From a virus (taxonomy: Duplodnaviria; Heunggongvirae; Uroviricota; Caudoviricetes): DNA of 64,000 nucleotides. Below are positions 20,178 through 47,932 of this stretch, one piece after another. The translations under genes and the position numbers were made by a program. Location: IMG/VR virus record IMGVR_UViG_2695420475_000001; one strand, given 5' to 3'. The number at the start of each line of letters is the position of its first letter. Within the stretch, counting starts at the first letter, position 1. The notes beneath the pieces are model-generated. The model had not been told where the DNA came from. It did no database searches and saw only the letters and a program-made list of their open reading frames with translations.

Positions 20178-20423
20178 TTGGCGTTCATATGCTTTAAGCA
20201 CACGAAGGAAGGGATTGAGATGTTGAAGCCCGTGAAACGGCTCAGGAAGCGCCACCGCAAGTACATCTGGGTGGACCGCGAAGGCACAGTGTGGGTGTAC
20301 CTGAAGTCCGAGAGGAATTGGTGCACGCTCACCTGGGTTGATGGCTTCCCAGAGCTTCTGGCCACCATTGACGATGACGGCTGGCCAGACGGTCCGTTCT
20401 ACCCTGTGCCGGTGTTCTCATGA
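20178..20423 (+). CDS. Hypothetical small protein
   Basis: ORF; start of the rightward small-gene cluster. Confidence 0.35.
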   Translation: MAFICFKHTKEGIEMLKPVKRLRKRHRKYIWVDREGTVWVYLKSERNWCTLTWVDGFPELLATIDDDGWPDGPFYPVPVFS

Positions 20424-30480: not shown

Positions 30481-30620
30481 AACGTATTGGTTAGGTGTCC
30501 TAGACCTACATACAGCCCGCTGTACATCGGTCAAAGACATCTAACCCATACGGGCCGCAATGCGCGTATGTGGTTCTCCCCGTGCGCGTTTGGTGGTCCT
30601 AACGGGCTGACCAGCATCGA

Positions 30621-30851
30621 TTGGGTGGCTGGTCAACTCTCACACGGAGAAGGGATACAGCAATGAGCAACGTACTACTCGCGTCAGCGCCGAGTATCGA
30701 GCAGATCCAAGACTGTGCGCGTCGGTACTTATGCGACCGGCAAGCCACAGTGACCGATGAACTCCAGCTACTACGCGGCGACGGCACCCCGGTGAGCAGT
30801 ATTGCGATCGTTCCTAAGGGCAAGCGGTATCGAATGGAATCTGTTCGATGA
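30621..30851 (+). CDS. Hypothetical protein (start 30663 after the conserved start-associated sequence)
   Basis: ATG preceded by CACACGGAGAAGGGATACAGCA. Confidence 0.45.
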   Translation: MGGWSTLTRRRDTAMSNVLLASAPSIEQIQDCARRYLCDRQATVTDELQLLRGDGTPVSSIAIVPKGKRYRMESVR

Positions 30852-31051
30852 ACCCGCAACTGTTCATAGCAGCATTCGCACTCGCCTATCCCCTAGCTCT
30901 TATGGGCTCACTAGGGGTAGAGAAATTCATGCACGCAATAGACGTGTATTGGCATATCAGTGACCGGATGGAATAGGCAGGATGGACAGCGGTCTTTTTC
31001 GCGGCCCGTTGTCCGTCTGGTGTATTTCACCAACACACGGAAGGGAACAAG

Positions 31052-31417
31052 ATGACGCTAGCCGCTTACCGCGCGACACGCGAGGAATACACGTTGGCAG
31101 ACCGACAAGCACTCGGCCAAACCATCGCAACTGACACGCCTTCTGGACCAATACAGCTTGTCCACGGGCGATATCTAGCAAGTGAAGCGTTAGCCGAGTA
31201 TGACGCGCTTAACAATGAATCTGATGAGGTTTGGCGAACTGTATCACCATTCCGAAGTGATTATGACGAGATTCAAGATTGTCTAAGGGAAGACTATGTC
31301 GAGATCTGCGAAAACCTTGCCTACTCAATTCACAAATGGCTAGGTGATTGTGAGCAGGAAGCTAAGAACCGCGACCGTGCAATATGCCGCGCAGCTGAAC
31401 TAGCGATGTACGACTAA
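31052..31417 (+). CDS. Hypothetical protein
   Basis: ATG preceded by ACACGGAAGGGAACAAG and an upstream conserved hairpin element. Confidence 0.5.
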   Translation: MTLAAYRATREEYTLADRQALGQTIATDTPSGPIQLVHGRYLASEALAEYDALNNESDEVWRTVSPFRSDYDEIQDCLREDYVEICENLAYSIHKWLGDCEQEAKNRDRAICRAAELAMYD

Positions 31418-31589
31418 TCCCCTACTACATACCAAGGAAGTTAGTTATGAGCCTACGAATCATAGTGCCAGAAGAGGACGAGCATCTGCTTAAAAATAAA
31501 GACTTTCTGGATGGCCTGAAGGAACTACTGCTATCCATAGGGGTCACTCACGCGTCGCTATTTGACTACACATACCAAGGATAGAAACA

Positions 31590-31787
31590 ATGGCATTCAA
31601 GATAGGTGACAGCGCGATTCTAAAAGAGACTGGGGAACGCGTTGTCATAGAGGACAGATACCAGTTTGGCGATGAAACTCACTACCAATTCGGGCATGCT
31701 GACGGTAACTACGGCTCGGCCAATGAAGGCGATTTAGAACATACCAGCCGCGTCAGGCGTGCTTGGGAAAAAGTTAGCAAGCACTAA
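31590..31787 (+). CDS. Hypothetical protein
   Basis: ORF with an upstream AAGGA ribosome-binding site. Confidence 0.4.
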   Translation: MAFKIGDSAILKETGERVVIEDRYQFGDETHYQFGHADGNYGSANEGDLEHTSRVRRAWEKVSKH

Positions 31788-31856
31788 CCCATACCAACTA
31801 ATAGAGAGGCACGTGAACTCATTGCGTGACTCACGGAAGTAATTCCGTGGGTTGCG

Positions 31857-32435
31857 TTGTGTGCTCACGACACACAATCAAACACATGGGAAGGGATACA
31901 AATGGAATTCACAGAGGTTTCCAACGACGATGGTGTGATCACTATCGAAGTATCAGGACGTGGATTTAGCGGTACTGCGAGGGTGAGTATCGGCACCGGA
32001 ACATGGCCGCTATATCACATTGAGGATTGCGTGGCACCGTACGTCGATATCAAGTTCGCCGCTGGTGTGACTATCAACGGCAAAGGATACGACGCATGGC
32101 GCTGTAACTCATCATTCCATCCATACGCGCACGGGCAGAACCTGCGGGAAGTACTCACCGACAAGGGCGTACAGGTACTGCCATACATGGCTAGCGCTGG
32201 CGGATATCACCGAGAGCTGACTGACAGTGCACGAACCAAGCTGCGTGAGCTTGCAACGGTGGTGGCCGATAAGTACCTGACGACCGAAGCGTCCAAGGCG
32301 GCAATCGTTCGATCCGCCCAACACAAGGTAGTCGACGCCATCACTGCGAAAGAAAGGGCTGAGGCTGAGGTAGTTGCGCGCGTTGACGAACTAGACAGCG
32401 CGCGTGCATATCTCGCACAAATGGAACAACTCTAA
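31857..32435 (+). CDS. Hypothetical protein (probable start 31902)
   Basis: ATG preceded by ACACATGGGAAGGGATACAA. Confidence 0.5.
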   Translation: MCAHDTQSNTWEGIQMEFTEVSNDDGVITIEVSGRGFSGTARVSIGTGTWPLYHIEDCVAPYVDIKFAAGVTINGKGYDAWRCNSSFHPYAHGQNLREVLTDKGVQVLPYMASAGGYHRELTDSARTKLRELATVVADKYLTTEASKAAIVRSAQHKVVDAITAKERAEAEVVARVDELDSARAYLAQMEQL

Positions 32436-32471
32436 GCGTATTGCTCGCTTCAGTCGGGCGCGGTTCTAACC

Positions 32472-33569
32472 GTGTCCGGTTGTGGCAATCAATCACGGGA
32501 TTGCCTACACACGGAAGGGATACAAACTATGTCTGCTGAAATCGACAACGCAAACGGTGTCTACATGTACACCGACTCCCGTAATGATGCCTGGCATCAG
32601 CTGGGACAGCAGGTCGGTCGCACTATGACAGCTGAGGAGGTTCTCAGTGCGTCGCACCTAGCTGGTTGGGACGTACGGAAGATGCCTATCAACATCCCGC
32701 AAAACCCAATCATCAATATGGATGGGGTTACTACTCCACCTGCGATCGTCGTGCCCGACAGGTATGCAACAGTACGAACCAACCCGATTACCAAGGAGAT
32801 TGACTACCTCGGGATTGTTGGCGATCGGTATGAGCCGGTGCAGAACGAGGCATCATGCGATCTGTTGAACGCCATTGTGGACGAGTCGGGTGCTCACTTC
32901 GAGACAGCCGGTGCGCTCTACAACGGTCGCCAAACGTTCGTAACCATGAAGCTACCCAAGGTGATGGATATCGCTGGTGCGAACGGTGTCACCGACCGTA
33001 CCGAGTGGTATCTAGCATCGCTCAACAGTCACGACGGCTCAAGTTCGGTGCGGGTGATCTTGACGGGTGTACGCATCGTGTGCGCCAATACCCAGCAGTG
33101 GGCGTTGAAGAGTGCACGATCATCATTCTCTGTGCGCCACACCAAGAATGCTAAGGCGAACATTGCCGAAGCGCGGCGGCTGTTAGGTATCACCTGGCAG
33201 TCCATCGACAGTGTGGACGCCGAGTTCCGGCGCATGGCTGAGGCTGAGATGTCTGTCATCGAAGCTGAGGAGTTTGTTCGTAAGCTGCTCAAGGCTGACG
33301 ATGTTGAGCCAGGTACGGCTGCGGCCACTCGTCGTGACAATGTCGCCAACAGCGTTCTCGATCTGTTCACCTCGTCGGAAACCATTACGCCGGTTCGGGG
33401 TACGCGCTACGCGTTGTACAACGCATTCACTGAGTATCAGGACCACTACGCAGCTGTTCGTGGAGCTGGTGGCCGGGATGCGGATGCGCGCGCACTGCGC
33501 ACCATTCGCGACGCCGAGAGTGAAACCTCACTCAAGGCGCGTGCGTTCCGTGGCCTACGGCTGGTCTAA
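32472..33569 (+). CDS. Phage/plasmid-related protein (DUF932-like, speculative); probable start 32529
   Basis: ATG preceded by ACACACGGAAGGGATACAAACT. Protein of about 345 aa with LASLNSHDGSSSVRVILTGVRIVCANTQ segment. Confidence 0.5.
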   Translation: MSGCGNQSRDCLHTEGIQTMSAEIDNANGVYMYTDSRNDAWHQLGQQVGRTMTAEEVLSASHLAGWDVRKMPINIPQNPIINMDGVTTPPAIVVPDRYATVRTNPITKEIDYLGIVGDRYEPVQNEASCDLLNAIVDESGAHFETAGALYNGRQTFVTMKLPKVMDIAGANGVTDRTEWYLASLNSHDGSSSVRVILTGVRIVCANTQQWALKSARSSFSVRHTKNAKANIAEARRLLGITWQSIDSVDAEFRRMAEAEMSVIEAEEFVRKLLKADDVEPGTAAATRRDNVANSVLDLFTSSETITPVRGTRYALYNAFTEYQDHYAAVRGAGGRDADARALRTIRDAESETSLKARAFRGLRLV

Positions 33570-33734
33570 CGGAAATGCATATAGATACGGGATGGGTGGT
33601 CGCGTGGTTTATCTGCGTGGCCATCTATCTAATCCAGTACAGGAGAGCTAAATAGGGAGGGTGGGACGCGAAGGGGTGCAAGCCTTTTCGCGGTCCGCCT
33701 GCTGTATTTAGCAGCACACACGGAAGGGATACCA

Positions 33735-33977
33735 ATGACAACTATCGCGGCACGCCCGTTGAACGTGATCGCAGACGAGATTAAAAGGGATTGGATTAAA
33801 CCGTTTTACGGCGCTGTCCCCTACTTGGATGCCATGGCGGCGCTCGGTGATATCGATGAGCGTTACGGGTGTGACTCTGCCGAGTTCATCGTTCTAGGCT
33901 TCCTGGCCAACTCTGGCAGCTGGCGCGGTCAGGTGGCTCGCCGGATCAAGAAGGAACTGACAGACATCCTGGGCTGA
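33735..33977 (+). CDS. Hypothetical protein
   Basis: ATG preceded by the hairpin plus CACACGGAAGGGATACCA motif. Confidence 0.5.
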   Translation: MTTIAARPLNVIADEIKRDWIKPFYGAVPYLDAMAALGDIDERYGCDSAEFIVLGFLANSGSWRGQVARRIKKELTDILG

Positions 33978-34034
33978 ACAGGGAGCTGTCGTACGTCTGC
34001 TGTATTCAGGCAGCAATACACGGAAGGGGTACGA

Positions 34035-34241
34035 ATGCATACATCCAGCATTCTGGGGACCAAGGGTGAGGGCGTCATGTGGCAGGGTCCTGGCCGACTG
34101 AAGTATGACGAGGCCTATAAGGAAGCCTCTGACCACGCTCTTTACTGGTTTGGCCGGAAGAGCGGTGAGGTGTCTGTGGACGAAACTAAGATCATCCACA
34201 ACGGGGTTCACGTTGCAAACATCCTGGTAGAGAGGGTCTGA
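34035..34241 (+). CDS. Hypothetical protein
   Basis: ATG preceded by the hairpin plus ATACACGGAAGGGGTACGA motif. Confidence 0.5.
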   Translation: MHTSSILGTKGEGVMWQGPGRLKYDEAYKEASDHALYWFGRKSGEVSVDETKIIHNGVHVANILVERV

Positions 34242-34376
34242 GGTGGTGGAAAAGGGCGCCAAAGCGCACCTAGTCAATCTGGCTGACGAGTACAGGCCCA
34301 CCATGGATGGTGAGGTGCTTCATTCATGGGCCAAGGAGGTCGTCACGGCGATTAGAGAGAGTGATAAGGGGGCGCA

Positions 34377-34592
34377 ATGATTCTCGCGGCCCTCCTCATC
34401 ACTGCTGGAATCATCATTCCTCCAAGCACTCCCGACTGTGCACGATTCGATGTGTGTAAGTACCAGCCGGGATATAACGGTCCCCTCATGCCCACCTGGA
34501 ACACACCAGGAACGTATGGGGGCTGGACAACCAATCAAGTCTTGTGCGACCCGGTCACGTACCAGTGTCGGCAAGTAGTACCAGGGAGTTGA
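34377..34592 (+). CDS. Small membrane/secreted Cys-containing protein
   Basis: Hydrophobic N-terminus MILAALLITAGIIIP. Confidence 0.4.
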   Translation: MILAALLITAGIIIPPSTPDCARFDVCKYQPGYNGPLMPTWNTPGTYGGWTTNQVLCDPVTYQCRQVVPGS

Positions 34593-34680
34593 CCATGACT
34601 CGGTATTGCATCACGTGCGAGCGTGAACGGGAAATGACTGTCGAGAACGGCGAACAGTACTGCTCGGTAGGGCACCGGCA

Positions 34681-34866
34681 ATGACTGACATCAATGCAGT
34701 AATAGAACGGCTAGAGAAGGCCGATAAAGAGTTACAGGGGCTAGTTGCAATACAGGAGGACCGGGTTCGTCACGGTCGGGGTGGTGCGCTAGAGGAACGA
34801 ACTCGACTCGCCGGAAAAATCGAAGGCGTACGTCTAGCCCTCTCATACCTAAGAGAAGAACAATGA
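34681..34866 (+). CDS. Hypothetical small protein
   Basis: ORF. Confidence 0.35.
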   Translation: MTDINAVIERLEKADKELQGLVAIQEDRVRHGRGGALEERTRLAGKIEGVRLALSYLREEQ

Positions 34867-35142
34867 GCACCGAAACCTACGACTTTGATGTCATCTGGGA
34901 CAGCCTGGAGAAATGCTCTTACTGTGGCTATCCGACGCCGTGCACTTGCGAGACATCACTATGACCGGGCGTGAGCGTATAGAACAAGCAGCCAAAGAAA
35001 ACGGGTGGAACAGCACCGCAGAGAGCGTAAAAACGTCTCTGTACTGGACAGAATACGCACGCCTATGGATTCGGTACACACCTACCGGTTCAATCCAATG
35101 GGTTGAAGGCACAGAGAATACGCCGTTCAGGAATCGTCTTAA

Positions 35143-35367
35143 GTGCGGGGTTGGTCAGGTTATCTCCTACCTACAGCAATACAAGGACACGCTATGAAAA
35201 TCAGCGACCAAATAGACGCGCTGACGTTCCCGGACGCGATAGAACTCAGATACAACGCTCCGGGTTGTTCCGCCTGGATTGCACTCACGTCAGATCAGGC
35301 GCAAGCCTTACTTGAATGGCTGCCCGGAGCTATCGCCACGACACAGCAACACAAGGAGAATCATTGA
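35143..35367 (+). CDS. Hypothetical protein (probable start 35194)
   Basis: ORF. Confidence 0.35.
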   Translation: MRGWSGYLLPTAIQGHAMKISDQIDALTFPDAIELRYNAPGCSAWIALTSDQAQALLEWLPGAIATTQQHKENH

Positions 35368-35579
35368 CACAGCAATACCGCATCACGCTAAAGATGGAAG
35401 ACGGACTCACGAATGAAGCTGAGGGGGAAGACCTTCCGCAGCTCGTCACCACCACCAACGCACTCGCGGCAGAACATGGCGGCGAAGACGTTCACGACTA
35501 CTTAGACGAGAACGGATCAATCATCTATACACGCAAGGGTAAGACAATCGGACGGGCTGACGTAACGCCGGTCATCTAA
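35316..35579 (+). CDS. Hypothetical acidic protein
   Basis: ORF. Confidence 0.35.
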   Translation: MAARSYRHDTATQGESLTQQYRITLKMEDGLTNEAEGEDLPQLVTTTNALAAEHGGEDVHDYLDENGSIIYTRKGKTIGRADVTPVI

Positions 35580-35651
35580 CACATCTGAATACGGAGGAGC
35601 CGCAGCGGGAGTCATTCTCGTTGCGGCTCTGCTGTTTTCAGCACACAGGGC

Positions 35652-36170
35652 ATGGGACTCACGAACCCATGCCCTTTTTCTATGCCCAGAGGAAGGGAAC
35701 GCATGTTATTGGAAGGTTGGACGTCAACACCGGTTGAATACGAACGCCTCACTCGCGCTGAGGTAGTCGAGCACGAGCGCTACTGGGCCGAGATGGTTCT
35801 CAAGGCGCGAAGCCTACGGCGCAAGTATGACCGCGCGGTATGGCTGAAGGACATAAAACGGGCTGAGAGCCTCGCAGAGGCCCTGAGATCCCTTGGCCCA
35901 TCCATGTTGTACGCCCACGGACGTTGGGAGCGTCACGGGCGCTGGAACCGGTACTACCAAGTACGTGGTGGCGCTGTACACACCACGCTGACATGCCGGT
36001 GCATCAACGGGGAGACGGTACTAAACCCGCTCCCCCAATTCGCTGGTAGGTCAAGGAAGTTCATCGCAGATCGGTACAAGCTGTGCCGACACTGCGGAGA
36101 TACCCACACGGGCGACATTCCTGCTGATCGAGCTTATCGGTCGTTCAAAGCCTACCTGCTCATTACCTAA
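35652..36170 (+). CDS. Hypothetical Cys/His-rich protein (probable start 35703)
   Basis: ATG preceded by GAGGAAGGGAACGC and an upstream hairpin element. Confidence 0.45.
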   Translation: MGLTNPCPFSMPRGRERMLLEGWTSTPVEYERLTRAEVVEHERYWAEMVLKARSLRRKYDRAVWLKDIKRAESLAEALRSLGPSMLYAHGRWERHGRWNRYYQVRGGAVHTTLTCRCINGETVLNPLPQFAGRSRKFIADRYKLCRHCGDTHTGDIPADRAYRSFKAYLLIT

Positions 36171-36316
36171 AACGCGGCCTGACCTGCATTAAGTGGGTCG
36201 GGTTTACGTTCTGAATACACGAAGGAAGGGATACCCAAAATGTTCGAAGAGGAAGAGATCGATTACGGCCCCGAGTGGTGGGGTGACTACCTCCAGGAGT
36301 CAGGGAGGTTGGCCCA

Positions 36317-36511
36317 GTGAAGTGCTCAATCAGCTACTGCTGGGAGGACTCCGTGTCCAAAGAGATGTGCGCACACCGCTACCAGCAGAACTACAAGCGG
36401 GACACGCGAGGCGATCGACGCAACCGGTCACGGCTCGCTAAGCGCTTGGAGGCTAAGGGTTTCAAGGTCTCTCAGGAGTACCTGGAGCAGCGATTGGCTG
36501 GCCTACGGTGA
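36317..36511 (+). CDS. Small Cys-rich protein
   Basis: ORF. Confidence 0.35.
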   Translation: MKCSISYCWEDSVSKEMCAHRYQQNYKRDTRGDRRNRSRLAKRLEAKGFKVSQEYLEQRLAGLR

Positions 36512-36783
36512 GCGCGCCAGTCACTCGGGATATGCGCTACTGGTACGAGCTTGGTAGACACACGCTCCTTCCCGGGACAGAGGTGTCCATTAGGGGCAAG
36601 ACTGGCCGGTTTCGGTTCCAGTACTGGCGACACACCAGCTCTGGCATGGATGAACTCACGTTCGTCGGTGGGCCGCTACATGGACAGGGAGAGCGTTACG
36701 TCTCGGTCTACCCCGATCGTGTTACACGGGTACATCGAATCAACAAGACACTGACCAACATTCAGAAGGAGAAGCGCAAGTGA
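36508..36783 (+). CDS. Hypothetical protein
   Basis: ORF. Confidence 0.4.
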   Translation: MSAPVTRDMRYWYELGRHTLLPGTEVSIRGKTGRFRFQYWRHTSSGMDELTFVGGPLHGQGERYVSVYPDRVTRVHRINKTLTNIQKEKRK

Positions 36784-36943
36784 GCGCCACAGTACTGGAG
36801 GCGCGGTGGCTCACGAAAGGCCACTACCTACCCGTGTATGCGGAATCGGTGGCTGAGGTGGTTCAGCTGGAGGACTTTGTCGTCGTGACGTTCGCCAGCG
36901 ACCTACCAGTGAAGGTCTTCCACGAAACCGACAAGGTCGAGGT

Positions 36944-37144
36944 GTGGGAATGAGGTACTGCCCCACTCCCGACAAGAAGTCATATGTCAACAAAGGTGTA
37001 GCACTTCGAGCGGTTACCAGGATCCGCAAGAACAGTAGGACGAGGCACAACAAGAAGCGCTACATACCGGTGGAGCCGTACGTCTGTTCGTGCGGCGAAT
37101 ACCACCTTTGCACCGCAGACAAAGCGAAGTTCAAACGCAAGTAG
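36944..37144 (+). CDS. Small zinc-ribbon-like basic protein
   Basis: C..C....C..C pattern with K/R-rich sequence; last gene before the terminator. Confidence 0.4.
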   Translation: MGMRYCPTPDKKSYVNKGVALRAVTRIRKNSRTRHNKKRYIPVEPYVCSCGEYHLCTADKAKFKRK

Positions 37145-37150
37145 AGAAGA

Positions 37151-37184
37151 GGGTCAGCCCACATGGGTTGGCCCTTTTCTTTTA
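37151..37184 (+). terminator. Rho-independent terminator candidate ending the rightward operon
   Basis: GC-rich imperfect hairpin GGGTCAGCCC-ACAT-GGGTTGGCCC followed by TTTTCTTTT. Confidence 0.5.
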
Positions 37185-37250
37185 CCCAGATCGTTAGCAG
37201 CCCTAACCAAAACTACCCACCCAATCATTCAGTCTCCTGCGGTATCATCT

Positions 37251-38651
37251 GTGACTATGCGAGCTGCCGTCTACCTGCGCCAATCAATGGATAGAGAAGG
37301 TGACGGACTAGCCGTCGAACGTCAGCGCGAAGACTGCCTGAGGATCTGCCGTGAGCGCGGCTGGGAACCCACCCAGTACGTCGACAACGACACTAGCGCC
37401 AGCAAGGGCCGTCGACCGTCGTATGAGCGCATGCTCGCTGATATACGCAGTGGTCGCATTGATGCCGTAGTGGTGTGGGATCTTGACCGCCTGCATCGTC
37501 AGCCCAAGGAGCTCGAGCAGTTCATTGAGCTGGCCGACGAGAAGCGGCTAGCACTGGCCACCGTAGGCGGGGACGCTGACCTCTCCACCGATAACGGTCG
37601 GCTGTTCGCGCGCATCAAAGGCGCGGTGGCTAGGGCTGAGGTAGAGCGGAAGTCGGCAAGGCAGAAGCGCGCATTTCTCCAGATGGCCCAATCTGGTAAA
37701 GGCTGGGGCCCGCGCGCATTCGGATACAACGGTGACCATGACAAGCCGAAGATCATCCTCAAGGAGGCTGAGGCCCTGAGGCGTGGCTACAAGATGCTCC
37801 TGTCGGGCGAAACCCTCTATTCAGTTGCAAAACACTGGAATGACGCTGGCCTAAAGACTCCACGGGGGAACCTGTTCAACGGCACCACGGTACGCCGGAT
37901 ACTTCAGAACCCACGCTACGCAGCCGTTCGTACATACCACGATGAAGTTGTAGGCGAAGGTAAATGGCCCGCGATCATTGACGAGACCACCTGGCAGGCT
38001 GTGAATGCCCTCCTTAGCGACCCATCACGCCATCAGCCGCGCCAGGTTCGCAAGTACGTCCTCGGCGGCCTACTCACCTGCAGCGAGTGTGGCCACAAGA
38101 TGTCTGTGGGCGTACAGCACCGGAAAGAGGGGAATGTCCCCATCTACCGGTGCAAGCATGTCAGCTGCGGCAAGGTCACCCGACGTGTTGAGCGCATGGA
38201 TGAATGGGTGAGGGAAATTGTCCTGCGCAGGATGTCGAGTCGGCATTGGGTTCCCGGGAATCAGGACAACCGGGAAAGGGCCCTCCAGCTACGGGAAGAG
38301 TTGGACACAATCAAGCAGCGAATGGACTCCCTCGCAATCGATTTCGCTGACGGAGAACTCACCGCAAGCCAGATGCGTATCGCTAATGAGCGCATGCAGG
38401 CGAAGCTGGATGACGTTGAGGACAAGCTGCGTCGAACCAATGTGCGGCCACTCCCCGATGGGATTCTCACCGCGAAGGACCGTGGCAAGTTTTACGACGA
38501 CCAGATGTCTCTGGATGCGAAACGAGCCCTCATCGAGGCCTTATGCAACTCGATCGTCGTGCATCCCCTCAACCTCAAGGGCCGCAGTGCTTCCCAGGCT
38601 CCGCTCGGGCATAACATCGATGTCCACTGGCACAAGCCCAGTAATGGCTGA
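37251..38651 (+). CDS. int: Large serine recombinase (serine integrase)
   Basis: N-terminal resolvase catalytic domain (AAVYLRQSMD...), recombinase domain and zinc ribbon (CSECGHKM...CKHVSCGK) with coiled-coil. Confidence 0.9.
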   Translation: MTMRAAVYLRQSMDREGDGLAVERQREDCLRICRERGWEPTQYVDNDTSASKGRRPSYERMLADIRSGRIDAVVVWDLDRLHRQPKELEQFIELADEKRLALATVGGDADLSTDNGRLFARIKGAVARAEVERKSARQKRAFLQMAQSGKGWGPRAFGYNGDHDKPKIILKEAEALRRGYKMLLSGETLYSVAKHWNDAGLKTPRGNLFNGTTVRRILQNPRYAAVRTYHDEVVGEGKWPAIIDETTWQAVNALLSDPSRHQPRQVRKYVLGGLLTCSECGHKMSVGVQHRKEGNVPIYRCKHVSCGKVTRRVERMDEWVREIVLRRMSSRHWVPGNQDNRERALQLREELDTIKQRMDSLAIDFADGELTASQMRIANERMQAKLDDVEDKLRRTNVRPLPDGILTAKDRGKFYDDQMSLDAKRALIEALCNSIVVHPLNLKGRSASQAPLGHNIDVHWHKPSNG

Positions 38652-38734
38652 GATCCGCGACAGCTGCGACTGAGTGAGTGGCGGTGCGTCGCCCAGGATC
38701 CTGGCGAAGATCGCCTCGTCTTCGTCTGACCAGA

Positions 38735-39454
38735 TCATCGGGGTAATGCCCCATCCACTCGCTTCATGTCCTCCAATTCCTGAATGATCTCCATGATCCG
38801 ATCAAGCGCCACGGGCTTGTACTCCCACGCGTCAAGACCGACGTGAATCTGATTGATACGTGCTGGTTTGTTGCGCAGCGCAGCACCACGCCGCTTGGCC
38901 TCCCGGCCACCGATACTCAGCTTCTCCGGGCTATGCGTGTGGCCATGCAAGATGTAATGCCCATAATCAGGCAGACGCCACTCGGGATAGCGATCCTCAT
39001 CCGTGTGGTCGCCCGTGTACGGGAAGTGAGACAGCATCGCGGTTGTATGGCCATCTCTCAAGGGAATTCGAACTTTCGCGGCCAACTGAACACACTCGAA
39101 TGGTGCAGGCCTGTCGGGTTGATCCTGGCCAAGATAGATGGGCAACCACTTATGCGAGTCGCGGTGCAAAGGATGTGTGCCACAATGATTTCCCGGAATA
39201 CCACGCTTGCGGCCAGGGCGAGCACGCAGCCAATCCAGGGCCCTCAATTGCGCTGTCTTGGTGCCGGACGAAATGTCACCCAACACCCACACTACATCGT
39301 CAGGCGCAACCATGCTGTCCCAGTTACGGGCCAGCTGCGCGTCATGAGAGTCGATCTCCGCGCCTACGTAACGTGGTAGCACCCATCCGCGAGTGCGTTC
39401 CCTGGCCACCTTCTCGTGGCCGATATGTGGGTCAGATGTAAACCAGATATTCAT
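38735..39454 (-). CDS. Calcineurin-like metallophosphoesterase
   Basis: Motifs DPHIGH, GDISSG, GNHCG and GHTH. Confidence 0.75.
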   Translation of the reverse strand: MNIWFTSDPHIGHEKVARERTRGWVLPRYVGAEIDSHDAQLARNWDSMVAPDDVVWVLGDISSGTKTAQLRALDWLRARPGRKRGIPGNHCGTHPLHRDSHKWLPIYLGQDQPDRPAPFECVQLAAKVRIPLRDGHTTAMLSHFPYTGDHTDEDRYPEWRLPDYGHYILHGHTHSPEKLSIGGREAKRRGAALRNKPARINQIHVGLDAWEYKPVALDRIMEIIQELEDMKRVDGALPR

Positions 39455-41086: not shown

Positions 41087-41215
41087 CGCCGTTCACCTCC
41101 CCCATGATCTGAGCCCCGTCATACACGGTCACCGGGTCGTAGTCGCATGCCGAATCGCGGTATCCCTTCCCTGGGATTACCGGGTACTTCTCGAACCAGA
41201 ACCCCTCACCGGGCA

Positions 41216-42524: not shown

Positions 42525-42608
42525 CTTCGAGTAGTCCATGCGGGAACCAAACCCGCACCAACACCTTGAGAGGGTGGTGTGCTCTCACTACACCAATGGA
42601 CCTTAGGG

Positions 42609-42947
42609 CTATTGCTCAACCCAATTGCCGGATTCACGAACCTCTGTCTTGAGGTTAACCGGCCACATATCACGCTCCACTTGGGCGCGTTGTAGGTCTT
42701 CGCGACCGACCTGACGCTTCACCCATAGTTGGAACTTCGGTGAGTTCGCCATTCGCCTGAACGCAGACTGCTTGTTCTGCAGCTGGCTACGCTCCTCGCG
42801 TGACTCACCCACTGCGCCAGACGGCTCATGCGTGATGCGCACACCCGTTTCGCGCTTGTTCTGGTTTTGACCGCCTTTGCCCCCAGATCGGAATGTGTCC
42901 ACACGACAATCCGAGAGGGTGACAGACAGTACCCGTTCTCTACTCAC
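42609..42947 (-). CDS. GGQ-domain peptide-release-factor-like protein (PrfH/ArfB-like)
   Basis: DTFRSGGKGGQNQNKRETGVRITHEPSG matches the class-I release-factor GGQ catalytic loop; 112 aa; adjacent to rtcB. Confidence 0.7.
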   Translation of the reverse strand: MSRERVLSVTLSDCRVDTFRSGGKGGQNQNKRETGVRITHEPSGAVGESREERSQLQNKQSAFRRMANSPKFQLWVKRQVGREDLQRAQVERDMWPVNLKTEVRESGNWVEQ

Positions 42948-43021
42948 GTCAAGTCGACCGGATTTGAACCGGCGTCCCCCGCCGTGACAGGGCGGTGCTT
43001 TAGACCTCTAAGCTACGACTC
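42948..43021 (-). tRNA. tRNA-Asp (anticodon GTC)
   Basis: Manually folded cloverleaf; anticodon stem CCGCC/GGCGG, T-loop TTCAAAT. Confidence 0.75.
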
Positions 43022-43129
43022 GAAAGAACGTTTGCCCCCAGTGGTTTTCGAGGCCACCGGGGCAGGTACGAACAACCTGAGCCAACTTTCTGGGAATCAA
43101 ACCCTGGAGCTGCTTGGCCAAAACTCCCG

Positions 43130-43201
43130 TGGAGAAACGGGGAATCGAACCCCGGACTCTGGTGTGCAAAACCAGTGCTTTACCAACTAAGCTATGTCCC
43201 C
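43130..43201 (-). tRNA. tRNA-Ala (anticodon TGC) with G3:U70
   Basis: Cloverleaf; acceptor GGGGACA/TTTCTCC including the G3·U70 Ala identity pair. Confidence 0.7.
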
Positions 43202-43227
43202 ATATTGGCCCGGAAAGGACGTTGTTA

Positions 43228-43656
43228 ATGAAGCTCAACCGCATTACAGAACTCGTAGCCAACACGACCGGCTTCGACGGCCTATCACTCCAGATCATTA
43301 AGCACGTGGATGCCGTCGAGATCTTGGACTCTGGTGTCCTCAGAGTTATCTCACGCTCAGTCCACGATGACGCTACTTGCGAAGACAGCCTCTACCTAGC
43401 ACCGGGCGAATGGAAGTCGTTCGCTCGTAGGGGCACGACAGTAGTGATCGAGTCCGAGGACCAGGTCTTTGACTTTGAGATGGGCCTCTCGACCGAAGAA
43501 TGCGTCAACTTCATCGCCGCCTATTTCGAGCGAGCGGACGGTTACGCTCCAGGCAATGCGCGCGACCTCGCCCGCGAGATAGTCTACAACCAACCGGTTG
43601 GTGTTGTGTACGGTTCCAACCACGTCAAGTTTAGGTTCGTTTCAAGCCCGAACTAG
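43228..43656 (+). CDS. Hypothetical protein embedded in the tRNA array (opposite strand)
   Basis: In-frame Met within ORF 43114..43656, preceded by GGAAAGGA. Confidence 0.35.
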   Translation: MKLNRITELVANTTGFDGLSLQIIKHVDAVEILDSGVLRVISRSVHDDATCEDSLYLAPGEWKSFARRGTTVVIESEDQVFDFEMGLSTEECVNFIAAYFERADGYAPGNARDLAREIVYNQPVGVVYGSNHVKFRFVSSPN

Positions 43657-43680
43657 TCGCCCAGGATCAAATTACTCGCG

Positions 43681-43754
43681 AGCCGCATCGAGGCCTCGAA
43701 CCCCGTACCTCTTCGTTACTAAGGAAGCGCTCTAACCTGGTGAGCTAATGCGGC
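43681..43754 (-). tRNA. tRNA-Thr-like (anticodon AGT, unusual A34)
   Basis: Cloverleaf closely resembling bacterial tRNA-Thr; anticodon loop TTAGTAA. Confidence 0.55.
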
Positions 43755-43758
43755 AAAG

Positions 43759-43829
43759 TACCTTGCGAGAGAATTGAACTCCCATCCTCGGGGTGTAAAC
43801 CCGGTGCCCTTCCGTTGGACGAGCAAGGC
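43759..43829 (-). tRNA. tRNA-Val (anticodon TAC)
   Basis: Cloverleaf; loop TTTACAC. Confidence 0.7.
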
Positions 43830-43954
43830 ATATTGAGCTTTTGGTTGAGGGTGCCAATGCTGCAGCGAGAGGTCCCTGGCGGATGCTCTATCCGCGCACA
43901 AACCTCCGGCGACAACCGAAGTCTCCACCGTAGGGTCGCCCATCCCAAGGCGTC

Positions 43955-44029
43955 GAACGAGTGACCAGATTCGAACTGGCACGACCTGTTTGGAAGACAG
44001 GGATGCTAAACCGTTAAACATCACACTCG
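43955..44029 (-). tRNA. tRNA-Gly (anticodon TCC)
   Basis: Cloverleaf; loop CTTCCAA, T-loop TTCGAAT. Confidence 0.7.
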
Positions 44030-44077
44030 CTTGAGTATGCAGATCGTAGGCTTCAAGGGTACGAAATGCGTACTGTT

Positions 44078-44148
44078 GCACGACCGACAGGAGTTGAACC
44101 TGCTTCCACGCGGCTTAGGAGGCCGTTGGTCTGTCCGAGTTACAGTCG
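44078..44148 (-). tRNA. tRNA-Arg (anticodon CCT), poorly formed D-arm
   Basis: Acceptor, anticodon and T arms fold; the D-arm is weak. Confidence 0.5.
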
Positions 44149-44155
44149 TAAGTTG

Positions 44156-44227
44156 GTAAGCCCGCAGTGAGTTGAACACTGGTTTCCGCCTTATCAGAGC
44201 GGTGTCCTAACCATTGGACGACGAGCT
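44156..44227 (-). tRNA. tRNA-Ile (anticodon GAT)
   Basis: Cloverleaf; loop CTGATAA. Confidence 0.7.
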
Positions 44228-44228
44228 A

Positions 44229-44301
44229 GTGGGTCTTACAGGGCTCGAACCTGTGTCCCCGGATTAAGAGTCCGGTGCTAATGCCATCTCAGCTAAAAAC
44301 C
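44229..44301 (-). tRNA. tRNA-Lys (anticodon CTT)
   Basis: Cloverleaf; loop CTCTTAA. Confidence 0.75.
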
Positions 44302-44314
44302 CGAGTTTTTGTGA

Positions 44315-44386
44315 GTCCACCCGGCAGGACTCGAACCTGCGTCTATGGATTAAAAGTCCACAGCTAAACCATCTCAGCTACGGGAG
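44315..44386 (-). tRNA. tRNA-Lys (anticodon TTT)
   Basis: Cloverleaf; loop CTTTTAA. Confidence 0.75.
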
Positions 44387-44957
44387 GGTACGTGACCTGG
44401 GGGTCGAACCCAGACTTTGCAGGGTTTGAGCCTGCTGCTTCTTCCTGATTGAGCGAGTCACGCTTGCTTTTCATATAATCTCTGTGCCGCTTCGCATTGC
44501 CCGCGCGACAGATTTCGCACCGGCACCCGTTCTGGTACGCCTTACGCTCGCCACAAATCGCCGGACCAATTTTGTATGGTCCGCGAACGGTGCCGCCGCG
44601 TCGAGCCGCATTCCGGGCGTCACTCCACACTCGCTGAGCCTCTTGACATACGCTGCACAAGCACTTGGCCTTTGACCATGCATACGTCGAGCCATGGGTG
44701 ATTCCCGTGTTTTCGACCGCTGTTTTGACTCGATGATGCTCACGACAAAGCAGCTGACACTTCTCAATCTCCGCGAGATGCAAGGGATTCTTGAGATTCA
44801 GGCATTTACCCGGCTCGAAACTCTTGGTTGCCGGGTCGATGTGGTCTATCTCTAAATCGTCTTCGGTACCACACTCCACACACTTACCACCCAGATAGGC
44901 AACGACTTCGGCTCGCTTACGGTGGTAGTACGCGATCTGATATTCAGCATTAGACAT
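44364..44957 (-). CDS. HNH homing endonuclease
   Basis: GKCVECGTEDDLEIDHIDP...N...LLCREHH motif. The 3' end overlaps two tRNA genes. Confidence 0.7.
   Translation of the reverse strand: MSNAEYQIAYYHRKRAEVVAYLGGKCVECGTEDDLEIDHIDPATKSFEPGKCLNLKNPLHLAEIEKCQLLCREHHRVKTAVENTGITHGSTYAWSKAKCLCSVCQEAQRVWSDARNAARRGGTVRGPYKIGPAICGERKAYQNGCRCEICRAGNAKRHRDYMKSKRDSLNQEEAAGSNPAKSGFDPQVTYPPVAEMV
44388..44462 (-). tRNA. Type-I tRNA with Leu anticodon CAA (atypical: short variable arm)
   Basis: Perfect anticodon stem GCAGG/CCTGC, loop CTCAAAC; 5-nt variable loop; D-arm paralogous to the 45004..45077 tRNA. Confidence 0.55.
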
Positions 44958-45003
44958 TATATTCTATTGTCCCACCGCATATTTCGATCATGTGGGTGAT
45001 ACG

Positions 45004-45077
45004 TAGCCCCGGAGTGATTCGAACACTCACTTGCTGGTTTCTAAGACCAGTGCTTCTGCCAGTTGAGCGACGGAGCC
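45004..45077 (-). tRNA. Type-I tRNA with Leu anticodon TAG (atypical: short variable arm)
   Basis: Anticodon stem CTGGT/ACCAG, loop CTTAGAA, canonical T-arm GAGTG-TTCGAAT-CACTC. Confidence 0.55.
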
Positions 45078-45134
45078 ATTGTGCCGATATTGCCGCGTCG
45101 GCTTTACGGTGACTCCTACTCACCGAGCGCGTCG

Positions 45135-45206
45135 AGACGAAGGCCGGGATCGAACCGGCGTGGGTCAGGGTTGCAGCCTGCCAGCTAGCCACTCACTCAC
45201 TTCGCC
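45135..45206 (-). tRNA. tRNA-Cys (anticodon GCA)
   Basis: Cloverleaf; loop CTGCAAC; 3-bp D-stem. Confidence 0.55.
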
Positions 45207-45216
45207 TTAAGCCGCT

Positions 45217-45381
45217 ATTCTGCAGCGGGTGCTGCCTTCTTCGCCGGGGCCTTCTTGGCTACCGGCTTCTCTTCCACTGCGTAGTGGAAGTCCTCAAGGG
45301 CATCCATACGGTCAATCAGGTCGTTTACCGCCTTGACGATGTCGATATGGGCGATGCCCGTGCGCAGCTTGTCAGTCATTG
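45217..45381 (-). CDS. Small basic protein with Lys/Ala/Pro-rich tail (54 aa)
   Basis: MTDKLRTGIAHIDIVKAVNDLIDRMDALEDFHYAVEEKPVAKKAPAKKAAPAAE; not in the ORF track because it is under 60 aa. Confidence 0.3.
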
Positions 45382-45929
45382 GTCGCCTCTGCTAGTCGTT
45401 TTCTGTAGTCGCGCTTACGATTTCTTGCTGCTAACCGACAGAGGCCGCAGCGGCACCCCCATCGGTCATACATTGTGCTTGTCCCATGGCGGGTTGGCCG
45501 CGTGCCATGCGTGAGCGGCATTTGGGCTGTGGTCTTGTCGCGATGACACCTCTTACAGAGGGGTTGACACTTCCTCAGCTCTGCCTGGAGTCGCGGCTCG
45601 GCCCAACTCCATATTCGGTGTGATGATTTCTCCATCGGATCGATGTGGTCGATCTCGAGTTGCCCAGTCGCACCGCAACTCACACACTTTCTGCCCTCAA
45701 AGTACCTAGCACGCCTTGCGGACTGCCGCAGTCGTTCGTATTCTCGTCGGCGGACAGGATCTTTGATTGGCATGTAACCCCTGTTTATATTGGGGTGACC
45801 GGACGGTACTGACCCGTCATCCTCGCGGTCACATCGCGAGATTCTCAACCTTTGAACTACGGTCACAGCCCCGTTGACAGGATTCGAACCTGCATGCGTT
45901 GCGCCTTCGTAAGGCGGTGGGCGCTCCAT
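45372..45929 (-). CDS. HNH homing endonuclease (probable start 45773)
   Basis: KCVSCGATGQLEIDHIDP...CKRCH motif. The N-terminal extension of the ORF would overlap tRNA-His, so the true start is likely at the MPIKDP Met. Confidence 0.7.
   Translation of the reverse strand: MERPPPYEGATHAGSNPVNGAVTVVQRLRISRCDREDDGSVPSGHPNINRGYMPIKDPVRRREYERLRQSARRARYFEGRKCVSCGATGQLEIDHIDPMEKSSHRIWSWAEPRLQAELRKCQPLCKRCHRDKTTAQMPLTHGTRPTRHGTSTMYDRWGCRCGLCRLAARNRKRDYRKRLAEATND
45794..45866 (-). tRNA. tRNA-His (anticodon GTG) with non-canonical T-loop
   Basis: Good acceptor, D, 6-bp anticodon and T stems; T-loop GTCAGTA lacks the TTC consensus. Confidence 0.55.
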
Positions 45930-45943
45930 TGCCCAACAACGGG
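45869..45943 (-). tRNA. tRNA-Arg (anticodon ACG)
   Basis: Cloverleaf; loop TTACGAA; D-stem GGGC/GCCC. Confidence 0.65.
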
Positions 45944-46080
45944 AGCAGGCGGTTTAACGTGGAGTGCCCAGCACGGAGCAGTTTTTCGTGATGTCTCAAC
46001 ACGGATGGTTCTTCCAGTTGTGAACCAACAACATTCATGGGCCAGTTTCTACCTCAGCCGTGTACTGGCAACCCTCGTCC

Positions 46081-46155
46081 GTGGCGGGTACCGGATTTGA
46101 ACCGGTGGTCTCAAGGTTATGAGCCTTGCGAGATGGCCGAGCTTCTCTAACCCGC
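46081..46155 (-). tRNA. tRNA-Met (anticodon CAT)
   Basis: Cloverleaf; loop CTCATAA; A1·C72 mismatch. Confidence 0.7.
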
Positions 46156-46281
46156 TATGTATGGTGACTCATTCCGACAGGACAGTTCGTCGCCTACCGT
46201 ATCCGCGCGAGTCAACGCGACCTTTTACGTGGAGTGCCCAGCTTTTCACCAGTAGCTGTGGAACCTGGTTTCCCTTACACG

Positions 46282-46355
46282 CCGACTCTCCCCGAATCGA
46301 ACGGGGGCGCACCGGGCTTCAACCGGTCGCTCTTACCTAACTGAGCTAAGAGTCG
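46282..46355 (-). tRNA. tRNA-Phe (anticodon GAA)
   Basis: Cloverleaf; D-arm GCTC/GAGC, loop TTGAAGC. Confidence 0.8.
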
Positions 46356-46648
46356 ATTGTTAGAGGCTGAGAGTACACCCGCTATCGAGAACCTTTCGCA
46401 GCATTATGGATTCGCTGCTTCTCCAGGCCATCCCTGACCTAGTTCTCACGCCTGGTCCGTTACCGTGAACCACTCGTTATGCCGAAAGCTACTCTGCGGC
46501 TTTCCCTTCGCGATGAGATGGCCGTCTCACTGCTGCAGTACTTGCCTACAAACCGCACTCACCTTGCGGGACTATTGTGCGGCCCAGATTCCCGAGGGTC
46601 TGGGATTAAGGCGCTTTTGCTCCTCGGCAGGGGAAGGACTTTTGCTTT

Positions 46649-46721
46649 TTATTGACGACGGGACTTGAACCCGCACATCCAGTTTCCAATAACTGGTGAC
46701 CTACCGTTGGTCTACGTCATT
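46649..46721 (-). tRNA. tRNA-Pro (anticodon TGG), copy 1
   Basis: Cloverleaf; D-stem GACC/GGTC, loop ATTGGAA. Confidence 0.55.
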
Positions 46722-47175
46722 CTCACAGCGGAGAATGATTTGACTAGAGACGTGCTTCCCCATGAAGTTCCGAACCCTTTTGGGGCACAGAATGCTTCAC
46801 GCCTCTCGTGCTTTCGCCTGGCGGGGCTAATTACACTCTCTCTCAACCGCATTGCGAGCCGTCGCCCGACGCGAGATCGATCATGGAACACGCCCTTGCT
46901 TGCGAGGCTCAGACTCAGTTCCTTCCGTTCCACAGGGCGCTTGTTCGATAGCCTTTTCACACGCACGTACGTGATGGTGTCCTCAGCACTTTGCCGTTGG
47001 ACGGGGCGTAACTCGCAACCTGGCAGCCATCACTGACTGCTCAAGGATTGGATTGCATGGATTGCCCTTGCGGGTGGTGGGTTGTCACCCCACCTTTCAC
47101 CACCTTGCGGTGGCTTATGGGCCATGCCCCGAATGTCTTAACTATATCTCCCACAACAGAGTTCGTGTGGGTGAG

Positions 47176-47258
47176 CGGAGAGGCAGGTATTCGAAACCTA
47201 CTGCGAACAGCGCTCCGGTTAGCAACCGGGCCTAGTCACCTAACTAGTTGCGCTCTCC
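47176..47258 (-). tRNA. tRNA-Ser (anticodon GCT), class II with long variable arm
   Basis: Loop TTGCTAA, variable stem GCG/CGC, T-loop TTCGAAT. Confidence 0.6.
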
Positions 47259-47338
47259 AAAATCCACCCCTTCGGCGTCGACACTGGACTCGACGCACCT
47301 GTATTCACTCTTAGCCATGGCCAGGCGGGTGGAGAACG

Positions 47339-47423
47339 AGGAAGGTAGAGGAATCGAACCCCCGAGTTTTCAGGCTCGCCCCGGTATTCGACGCCGGTTG
47401 CCGACCATTCAGCGGTGCCTTCC
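47339..47423 (-). tRNA. tRNA-Ser (anticodon CGA), class II
   Basis: Loop GTCGAAT in stem CCGG/CCGG; variable arm CGAG-loop-CTCG. Confidence 0.55.
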
Positions 47424-47503
47424 ATATGCCCCATTTTGATAACGCAACTGGAGCGGCTGCGGGCAGTCAACTCATGGCAGGTACCTACCGGTTGACTCAA
47501 AAG

Positions 47504-47576
47504 CTGATGACCCTGGATTCGAACCAAGACCTACGTGGTTCAGAGCCACGTGTGCTGCCGGTTACACCAATCATCA
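47504..47576 (-). tRNA. tRNA-Gln (anticodon CTG)
   Basis: Cloverleaf; loop CTCTGAA. Confidence 0.75.
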
Positions 47577-47640
47577 ATGCTGAGACTGGCCTTGCGGGCG
47601 GGGGAACGTTTCTGCTTGCCGCAAGCCTTCAGTTCGTTCC

Positions 47641-47717
47641 ACACCAGTCTCATTGTCTCGCCGTCAGGAGTCGAACCTGCACACCCGAAGGAGCAGATTT
47701 ACAGTCTGCGTTGATCG
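47641..47717 (-). tRNA. tRNA-Tyr (anticodon GTA)
   Basis: Anticodon arm GCAGACTGTAAATCTGC identical to E. coli tRNA-Tyr; variable arm with TTCG tetraloop; D-arm weak. Confidence 0.55.
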
Positions 47718-47769
47718 CCTATTCGCGACGAGATTGGAGCCAGTGCTCGGCTTCTCGCCGATTCGCATG

Positions 47770-47842
47770 CACACACTGACATGGCTGGCTTGGAAGGATT
47801 CGAACCTACACCTCGCGAGTTAACAGCTCGCTGCTCTACCAA
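47770..47842 (-). tRNA. tRNA-Asn (anticodon GTT)
   Basis: Cloverleaf; loop CTGTTAA. Confidence 0.7.
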
Positions 47843-47932
47843 TTGAGCTACAGGCCAAGAGCGAGGGTGGCCAGTGTCAGCGCGCTTTCTGACCTGTGCG
47901 ACCCTCTTGCCCGTCCTGCTTAGAGATGAGAC

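Follow-up and report, generated by a model that had tools for sequence, protein, structure and literature searches.

The stretch of viral DNA analysed here (the window, 64,000 nt; IMG/VR record IMGVR_UViG_2695420475_000001, Caudoviricetes) carries, between the phage attachment site attP and the serine integrase gene int, a family of start-associated repeats, ACACGGAAGGGATAC and its variants, that lie directly before ATG codons and have hairpins upstream. We propose, with a probability of roughly 60%, that motif and hairpin make up an mRNA leader, one for each gene cassette, that would control translation initiation, would be of the type found in Cluster M mycobacteriophages and would act in RNA rather than in DNA. 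The proposal is built on the sequence and position of the motif, its complementarity to 16S rRNA, RNA-type covariation and strand asymmetry of the hairpins, and the breakpoints at which homology to related phages ends. On sequence comparison, motif and hairpins are best identified as the Mycobacterium abscessus (Cluster MabI) version of the conserved-repeat and stem-loop family of Cluster M, and not as a new element; this kinship was missed by an earlier, sequence-only reading of the same DNA.

Copies resembling ACACGGAAGGGATAC precede eight ATGs of the block, all on the + strand in the direction from attP to int (Table 1). All eight starts at which the sequence-only reading had placed the motif indeed carry it, well above chance and including the copy at 35703 that had been called degenerate (16.9 bits); the spacing given there as 3–6 nt is actually 2–5 nt between the last base of the 15-mer and the ATG. 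Allowing up to 3 mismatches, the 15-mer yielded 9 matches against 1.42 expected, a number reached by 0/100 shuffles. A ninth copy of the motif lies outside the interval originally reported and precedes the ATG at 20220, the first gene of a block on the + strand, divergent from the terminase and structural genes. We also ran over both strands of the whole 64 kb a 22-nt weight matrix built from the eight operon sites, that is, the genome-wide scan that the earlier reading had called for. The training sites scored 16.9–26.4 bits, and beyond them only 20197–20218 (+) and 41159–41180 (−) exceeded 15 bits, the latter with no start codon after it. Within the operon, the motif is present in all of the leaders of at least 57 nt (8/8) and missing at overlapping (ATGA/GTGA) or near-abutting junctions (gap ≤5 nt), while the 29-nt gap before 31447 holds a different repeat. 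The nine downstream proteins are mutually unrelated, their best non-self blastp E-value in a nine-sequence database being 0.33, and just one of them, the DUF932 protein encoded at 32529–33569, passed the curated Pfam cut-off (E = 3e-56). Given this lack of relatedness, and with similarity ending at the ATG, a local duplication of gene 5′ ends was ruled out, and the copies stand as the independent elements for which they had been taken.

The 3′ end of mycobacterial 16S rRNA reads ...GAUCACCUCCUUUCU. Within the motif, GGAAGGGA alone pairs with the last 8 nt of this tail (about −10 kcal/mol in the predicted duplex), and this core is situated 6–9 nt from the ATG. The motif thus holds a Shine–Dalgarno (SD) sequence at normal spacing, which would fit the translational control element that was one of the options of the earlier reading. 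By contrast, the ACAC and TAC flanks are conserved yet outside the pairing with the 16S tail, and are therefore kept for a reason other than SD pairing; the claim that conservation exceeds that of an SD alone was borne out in this respect. The same argument, from conserved positions beyond 16S pairing, has been made for the start-associated sequences (SAS) of Cluster K phages (PMC3203893). Comparison with prophiGD54-2, a related prophage, evidenced 95–100% identity over the 20–23 nt motif regions (100% at copy 5) versus 60% at third codon positions of the adjacent DUF932 gene.

Upstream of the motif, the sequence-only reading had seen a conserved element of about 35 nt with a small inverted repeat. 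The element is present, but it is really the 3′ half of a 57–66 nt imperfect hairpin, of which the inverted repeat CTGCTGTATTTAGCAGCA forms the 3′ arm; likewise, the supposed partial copy at 35620–35660 turned out to be a complete hairpin followed by an inserted terminator and then by the degenerate motif. The hairpins of Rey, Bricole and the MabI relatives have a common shape, with a basal stem of 5–8 bp, a 1×1 mismatch, 2–4 bp, an A/G mismatch and a variable stem of 10–16 bp. In a MAFFT alignment of 18 copies with both 17-nt arms in register, 86.6% of the cells in the 17-bp basal arms were paired versus 69.2% in shuffles, none of which (0/500) reached the observed value. Both sides had changed in 13/17 basal pairs, and sliding the partner by 1–3 columns brought pairing down to 41–50%. 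Positions 9 and 12 were G·U, and position 11 an A/G mismatch, in 18/18 copies. A covariance model built from this alignment retrieved 120 copies in 13 MabI and Cluster M loci, all on the strand of the following right-end genes; within the window it recovered every site of the sequence-only reading, the 20220 copy and one other, marginal, match. Pairing amounted to 93.4% over 110 distinct rows, in an alignment fitted to the model, versus 67.9% in shuffles; the hairpins of prophiT49-2 and Reindeer are covered by the covariance model alone. Moreover, the sense strand folded better than the antisense strand in 51/51 hairpins, with a sense-minus-antisense difference of −12.1 kcal/mol in 100-nt leaders versus −0.45 in 99 coding segments (p = 3e-5). 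Collectively, these data point to the upstream element being folded in the mRNA, or in any case in a single strand, and the combination of covariation, invariant G·U pairs and strand asymmetry makes it a poor fit to a site for a protein that binds duplex DNA. A stable hairpin occurs in 8/8 operon leaders, with fold z-scores of −3 to −6 in five. After the long hairpins comes CAGCACACAC and no U-run, so that most of them are not terminators; a terminator scan gave 6 sites versus 6.4 expected, and among the leader hairpins only 35648–35679 fits an intrinsic terminator. None of the Rfam covariance models matched at E ≤ 1 in 29500–39000.

The 3′ arm has a second pairing option, in which its positions 12′–8′ (TGCTG) pair with CAGCA just downstream to form a small hairpin that is mutually exclusive with the basal part of the long one. 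The segments involved fall into three-way matched classes, GGG/CTGCTG/CAGCA, GGC/CTGGTG/CACCA and GGT/CTGGTC/GACC. A small hairpin of at least 4 bp is formed by 50/67 distinct copies versus 21.7 in permutations (maximum 31, 1000 permutations), the classes representing only a handful of independent events. In the window it is found as TGGTG/CACCA at 31018–31032 (of the compensatory class GGC/CTGGTG/CACCA), as TGCTG/CAGCA at 33700–33716, intact at 33998–34015 within the element at 33974–34015, and as TGCTG-TTTT-CAGCA at 35630–35643, where it overlaps the 35585–35641 hairpin. The 5′ arm is purine-rich and SD-like (GGAGG), and the 3′ arm CU-rich and anti-SD-like. Partition-function folds gave the true SD a mean probability of being unpaired of 0.77 with the full hairpin versus 0.44 without the 5′ arm.

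The 5′ arm CTGAATAGGGAGG (for example, 33974–33985 and 35585–35596) contains stops in two frames, TGA at positions 2–4 and TAG at 6–8, and after them a perfect SD-like GGAGG, which the stem conceals. Among the elements of Rey and Bricole, the annotated stop of the upstream gene coincides with arm positions 2–4 in 14/25 and falls within −13 to +6 nt in 23/25, the offsets in the window being +1, +6, −8 and −81. Thus, the 5′ arm of the 30966–31031 hairpin holds the stop TAG (30974–30976) of an upstream small open reading frame (ORF), and the stop TGA at 33975–33977 occupies positions 2–4 of the 5′ arm of the 33974–34015 element. A stop near the base of the hairpin is partly expected, because the element fills the whole intergenic space; its exact register suggests that the stop codon may be part of the element.

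By its matches to deposited prophages, the window is identified as an M. abscessus phage of Cluster MabI, resembling Cluster M, in its excised form. Positions 30514–36600 match the right end of prophi86-1 (MW584160), prophiT49-2 (OQ417962) and prophiGD54-2 (MW584202) at 83–97% identity, while 5601–30518 match the left end of prophi86-1 and prophiT49-2, reaching position 1 of the records. The two record ends thus meet at ~30514–30518 with a 5-bp overlap, CAGCC, from which it follows that the window represents the excised, phage form with attP intact. This site is located between divergent genes, at a distance of 6.7 kb from the serine integrase gene (37251–38651) and ~145 nt upstream of the first motif-bearing gene. 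The Cluster M architecture is evident from 22 tRNA genes plus a gene for transfer-messenger RNA (tmRNA), the distant attP and the serine integrase. The MabI prophages are 94–97% identical to the window, and Rey and Reindeer ~75% (structural and replication genes); phages of the MabI type have been related to Cluster M (PMC8092301, PMC9934374). The window is oriented in reverse of the prophage records, so that the rightward operon of the sequence-only reading corresponds to their leftward right-end block. From attP (~30514) to the integrase gene (37251) this block reads as what would be one long multi-gene message, in which genes of the same cassette have stop-to-start overlaps and the first gene of a cassette is preceded by a leader of 57–165 nt.

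For Cluster M, the part of PMC7953290 that cites Pope et al. 2014 (J Virol 88:2461) describes conserved repeats (CR), CR3 and CR4, with upstream stem-loops at the int-proximal genes of the right end. Our assignment compares the window with CR3/CR4 through that published description and, at the level of sequence, directly with the genomes of Rey, Bricole and Reindeer. The likeness comprises the genome type (~80 kb, a tRNA array plus tmRNA, a serine integrase with distant attP), the location between int-proximal right-end genes with every copy on the strand of those genes, the core ACACGG(AG)AAGGGA, which immediately precedes start codons in Rey, Bricole and Reindeer, and the upstream hairpin family, since a single covariance model spans MabI and Cluster M loci. 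Indeed, motif and upstream hairpins were found before leftward right-end genes of all three phages. In Rey, genes 173, 171, 170, 169, 167, 165 and 163 have CACACGGAGAAGGGA(A) followed by 5–7 nt and the ATG, and genes 162, 160, 158, 157 and 154 have looser versions; Bricole shows a Rey-like pattern, with window-type ACACGGAAGGGA at genes 161 and 160, and copy 1 of the window (30641–30658) has the exact Rey/Bricole form CACACGGAGAAGGGAA. The differences reside in the host, which here is M. abscessus, and in the sequence, the MabI consensus being ACACGG-AAGGGATAC whereas the M. smegmatis phages Rey, Bricole and Reindeer have CACACGGAGAAGGGAA. The consensus is therefore lineage-specific, GGAAGGGATAC in MabI versus GGAGAAGGGAA in M1/M2. 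The MabI relatives carry the motif at both orthologous and non-orthologous genes. A scan of IMG/VR for the exact 15-mer found 2–4 copies only in MabI-like contigs (five of ~78–80 kb and one of 28 kb), the other matches being single, while a scan of genome contigs returned almost only single chance matches in unrelated bacteria and was uninformative.

The window motif also resembles the Cluster K SAS and extended SAS (ESAS; PMC3203893), which comprise a 13–15 nt repeat directly before the starts of non-structural genes that contains the SD plus conserved positions unable to pair with 16S rRNA and, upstream of roughly half the sites, imperfect inverted repeats of 17 bp whose spacer varies. The likeness to ESAS is one of architecture, the window having 17-bp basal arms at 4/8 sites. 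The SAS consensus GGGATAGGAGCCC is nevertheless unlike the window motif, its SD lies at the 3′ side of the GGGATA-like part and not, as here, at the 5′ side, and the inter-arm spacer of ESAS is replaced here by a variable 10–16 bp stem that makes the whole element one long hairpin. In line with the resemblance without identity that the sequence-only reading had noted, GGGATAGGAGCCC occurred only at chance level in the window (2 matches with ≤2 mismatches versus 1.64 expected, neither at a start codon). The function of SAS is still described as needing verification (PMC12699233). We also considered integron attC-like cassette sites, since small ORFs are arrayed here with imperfect hairpins between them, and set them aside on finding no tyrosine integron integrase, breakpoints at the motif or ATG instead of the hairpin, and the hairpin tied to the SD. 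A promoter for leaderless mRNAs was likewise discarded on inspection, the hexamer at −12 to −7 before the ATG being GAAGGG and not TANNNT.

The motif also coincides with points at which synteny with relatives breaks. Homology to prophi86-1 ends at 31046, within motif copy 2, and again at the ATG, at 31904, and resumes at 32508, at motif copy 4. The leader at 31785–31904 is shared with prophi86-1, whereas the gene behind it differs and is ArdA-like in that prophage. In turn, prophiGD54-2 has an additional 700-bp cassette with the motif on both sides. The equivalent slots of close relatives (genes 164 and 166, and prophiGD54-2 gene 151) hold genes for ArdA-like anti-restriction, endonuclease and N-glycosylase/DNA lyase proteins; judged from these and from the DUF932 protein of the window, the cassette cargo looks anti-restriction-like.

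In the mechanism that we favour, translational control by a leader, every cassette would receive a self-contained, context-independent strong start signal. The two conserved flanks, CA-rich on the 5′ side and TAC on the 3′ side, probably provide an unstructured site for standby or recognition. The purine-rich 5′ arm of the hairpin would sequester the CU-rich, anti-SD-like 3′ arm and so leave the true SD single-stranded, and the hairpin, which often starts at the stop codon of the preceding ORF and whose 3′ arm could form the mutually exclusive small hairpin, would insulate the start from upstream sequence. The start signal might be switchable, or coupled to upstream termination or to RNA processing. 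Recurring as it does before many genes, the shared 20-nt repeat could double as a junction for cassette exchange. A bolder version, which we consider speculative and rather improbable, holds that hairpin and motif form a two-state RNA device coupling the start of a cassette to termination on the previous ORF. With the upstream stop at 5′-arm positions 2–4, a terminating ribosome would melt exactly the conserved 17-bp base, the released 3′ arm would refold into the covarying small hairpin, and the ribosome, or its 30S subunit, would be passed over what is left of the stem to the SD ~10 nt further on; alternatively, a phage factor would set the state. If true, such a device would define a new class of phage translational regulators shared by Cluster M and MabI, and a bacterial counterpart of hairpin-bridged reinitiation or shunting.

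Several observations weigh against the translational leader. The drop in SD exposure on removal of the 5′ arm is an average with wide scatter, and the long hairpin is found at only about half of the motif copies, the others having different hairpins. The covariation counts include non-independent, paralogous or orthologous copies, and the 110-row alignment was fitted to the model. The G·U pairs could, as G·T, equally stabilise a hairpin in single-stranded DNA, and the lineage-specific consensus could reflect homogenisation of copies instead of function. In addition, several motif-less genes of the same operon reach a similar SD pairing energy, and the motif is therefore not needed for a good SD as such. 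Finally, the literature searched offered neither expression nor translation data on Cluster M or MabI phages, nor any RNA-seq of their lytic growth, and the effect on translation is therefore one that we infer.

These reservations have to be set against the merits of other explanations, some of which are partly compatible with a translational leader. That holds for processing or stability sites, that is, intercistronic hairpins that would be cut (for example, by RNase III) or would block exonucleases. A long message would thereby give rise to stable mRNAs of one cassette each, with the small hairpin folded at the new 5′ end, any translational effect being secondary. The early region of phage T7 offers a model, as RNase III hairpins separate the cistrons of its polycistronic early message; these too are long and imperfect, have internal loops and lie between early genes just upstream of the next ribosome-binding site, although the analogy is one of layout only, with no sequence relationship and a mycobacterial host here. 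The stems of 20–30 bp with small symmetric internal loops, sense-strand-specific and covarying, would suit such a role, as would the lack of a U-run after most hairpins, which are hence mostly not terminators, and a small hairpin positioned to cap a processed 5′ end. What processing leaves unexplained is the ACAC...TAC sequence around the SD and its fixed distance to the ATG, and we hold it to be unlikely as the whole explanation. Slightly less probable in our judgement, but again partly compatible with the leader, is that the repeats are kept mainly as recombination junctions, through cassette swaps and homogenisation by gene conversion, their SD content being incidental. All three breaks in prophi86-1 homology in or at the motif, the motif-flanked cassette of prophiGD54-2 and the lineage-specific consensus argue for this; it leaves unexplained, however, the exact placement at ATGs in a single orientation, the RNA-type covariation of the hairpin and the 100% conservation next to silent sites that are 60% identical, and selection for working joints would likewise leave the surviving breakpoints at the motif.

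The sequence-only reading had also contemplated a repeated promoter or operator. The motif would then be a DNA site, either operator- or stoperator-like or part of a phage-specific promoter, bound by a repressor or a sigma-like factor. In favour of such a site are the numerous copies, all oriented alike and restricted to a single transcription block, and their lineage-specific consensus; in addition, the repressor of MabI phages is described as unidentified (PMC8092301). Yet we found no sigma-70-like enrichment of −35/−10 elements (3 sites versus 5.6 expected), and the 13-bp asymmetric stoperator consensus of Cluster A, GGTGGMTGTCAAG, stayed at chance level (3 matches versus 3.26 expected). 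Furthermore, the upstream element behaves as an RNA structure that is specific to one strand and undergoes compensatory changes, and not as a fixed palindrome for protein binding. Pairing persists although the loop sequences differ, the G·U pairs never change and the sense strand folds better, and a protein site in duplex DNA would impose none of the three. We accordingly rate a DNA site as quite improbable, below recombination junctions. Lowest of all, and already contradicted by the present results, stands the explanation that the motif is merely a strong SD whose extra similarity stems from chance or recent copying. It accounts for the GGAAGGGA core, which is an SD, but not for 9 motif matches where 1.4 are expected, for flanks conserved across Rey, Bricole, Reindeer and MabI, for unrelated downstream genes, or for 100% identity of motif regions against 60% at neutral sites.

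As an instance of a published feature and not a new kind of system, the finding extends the Cluster M type of repeat to prophages of the pathogen M. abscessus. Start-associated repeats, both the SAS/ESAS of Cluster K and the CRs of Cluster M, have been known for more than 10 years without a tested function, and the window offers a testable structure, with a wobble-pair hairpin, a competing small hairpin, a stop at the base and breakpoints at the motif. If the leaders are portable, context-independent translation starts, they would be of use as a part in the engineering of mycobacteria and phages.

Table 1. Motif copies and leader structures in the window, in order of position
Feature	Position	Strand	Sequence and placement	Score or basis
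Extra motif copy	20197..20218	+	AGCACACGAAGGAAGGGATTGA, 1 nt before ATG 20220	15.9 bits
Leader hairpin	30608..30635	+	GACCAGC...GCTGGTC, first gene after attP	fold
Motif copy 1	30641..30658	+	CACACGGAGAAGGGATAC, GA insertion, 4 nt before ATG 30663	23.8 bits
Long imperfect RNA hairpin	30966..31031	+		fold; covariance-model match 56.9 bits
Motif copy 2	31033..31049	+	ACACACGGAAGGGAACA, 2 nt before ATG 31052	24.6 bits
Leader hairpins	31812..31877	+	include TTGTGTG-CTCACGA-CACACAA at 31857-31877	fold
Motif copy 3	31882..31899	+	ACACATGGGAAGGGATAC, 2 nt before ATG 31902	22.0 bits
Two leader hairpins	32455-32478 and 32484-32505	+		fold
Motif copy 4	32509..32523	+	exact ACACGGAAGGGATAC, 5 nt before ATG 32529 (DUF932 protein)	26.4 bits
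Long imperfect RNA hairpin	33647..33712	+		fold z-score -5.5; covariance-model match 64.1 bits
Motif copy 5	33718..33732	+	exact, 2 nt before ATG 33735	26.3 bits
Degenerate hairpin element	33974..34015	+		covariance-model match 35.0 bits
Motif copy 6	34018..34032	+	ACACGGAAGGGGTAC, 2 nt before ATG 34035	21.9 bits
Long hairpin	35585..35641	+		fold z-score -6.3; covariance-model match 46.3 bits
Intrinsic-terminator-like hairpin and T-run	35648..35679	+	GGGCATGGG-loop-CCCATGCCC-TTTTT	sequence and fold
Motif copy 7, degenerate	35688..35700	+	AGAGGAAGGGAAC, 2 nt before ATG 35703	16.9 bits
Leader hairpin	36171..36210	+	CTGACCTGC... module	fold
Motif copy 8	36215..36234	+	ATACACGAAGGAAGGGATAC, 5 nt before ATG 36240	24.8 bits

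Individual leaders differ in detail from those of the relatives. The hairpin at 33647–33712 shows compensatory changes relative to prophiGD54-2, and so does that at 31857–31877, which in the leader of prophiGD54-2 gene 154 has the stem TTGCGTA/TACGCAA around an unchanged loop. In the 33974–34010 copy, the 5′ half of the inner stem has been lost compared with prophiGD54-2, where the full version precedes gene 148. The terminator at 35648–35679 is inserted within the operon, between the long hairpin and the SD of the gene at 35703, a placement shared with the leader of Rey gene 155; either this gene needs a promoter of its own or the terminator is read through. The loop CTCACGA(A) (31864–31870, 35657–35665) recurs on the unrelated stems TTGTGTG/CACACAA, TTGCGTA/TACGCAA and GGGCATGGG/CCCATGCCC, also in the leaders of prophiGD54-2 gene 154 and Rey gene 155, which suggests a motif for loop-specific recognition.

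Another module recurs among these leaders. The hairpin at 30608–30635 is found again upstream of prophi86-1 gene 163 and of prophiGD54-2 genes 150 and 156, and hairpins of the CTGACC(A/T)GCATCGATTGGGT type occur at 30608–30635, at 36171–36210 and in the leaders of Rey gene 154 and Bricole gene 137. In Rey, Bricole and prophiGD54-2 gene 156 this module lies directly 3′ of a strong terminator that closes with a T-run, which for Rey 154 and prophiGD54-2 156 is TTTTTTGTGCTCTGACC. The module may be a repeat associated with promoters, perhaps a further CR of Cluster M. A second start-associated repeat, CTACA(CA)TACCAAGGA, stands at 31424–31446 and 31567–31589 before the small genes with ATGs at 31447 and 31590, and also before prophi86-1 gene 165.

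At the distal end of the block, the ATG at 36240 opens an ORF of only 26 aa, annotated as gene 151 in prophiT49-2, whose stop overlaps (GTGA) the gene start at 36317. Motif, 26-aa ORF and GTGA-coupled gene (36240–36320) look like a leader-peptide style arrangement. The 64-aa gene that follows the 26-aa ORF carries the annotation 'arginine repressor protein' in prophiT49-2. The tRNA/tmRNA array, on the − strand at 42531–48813, comprises the 22 tRNA genes and the tmRNA, with the tag AASAQSDYALAA; for the tRNA call at 46650–46721, the 'anticodon' is abnormal, with two bases, and no amino acid is assigned.

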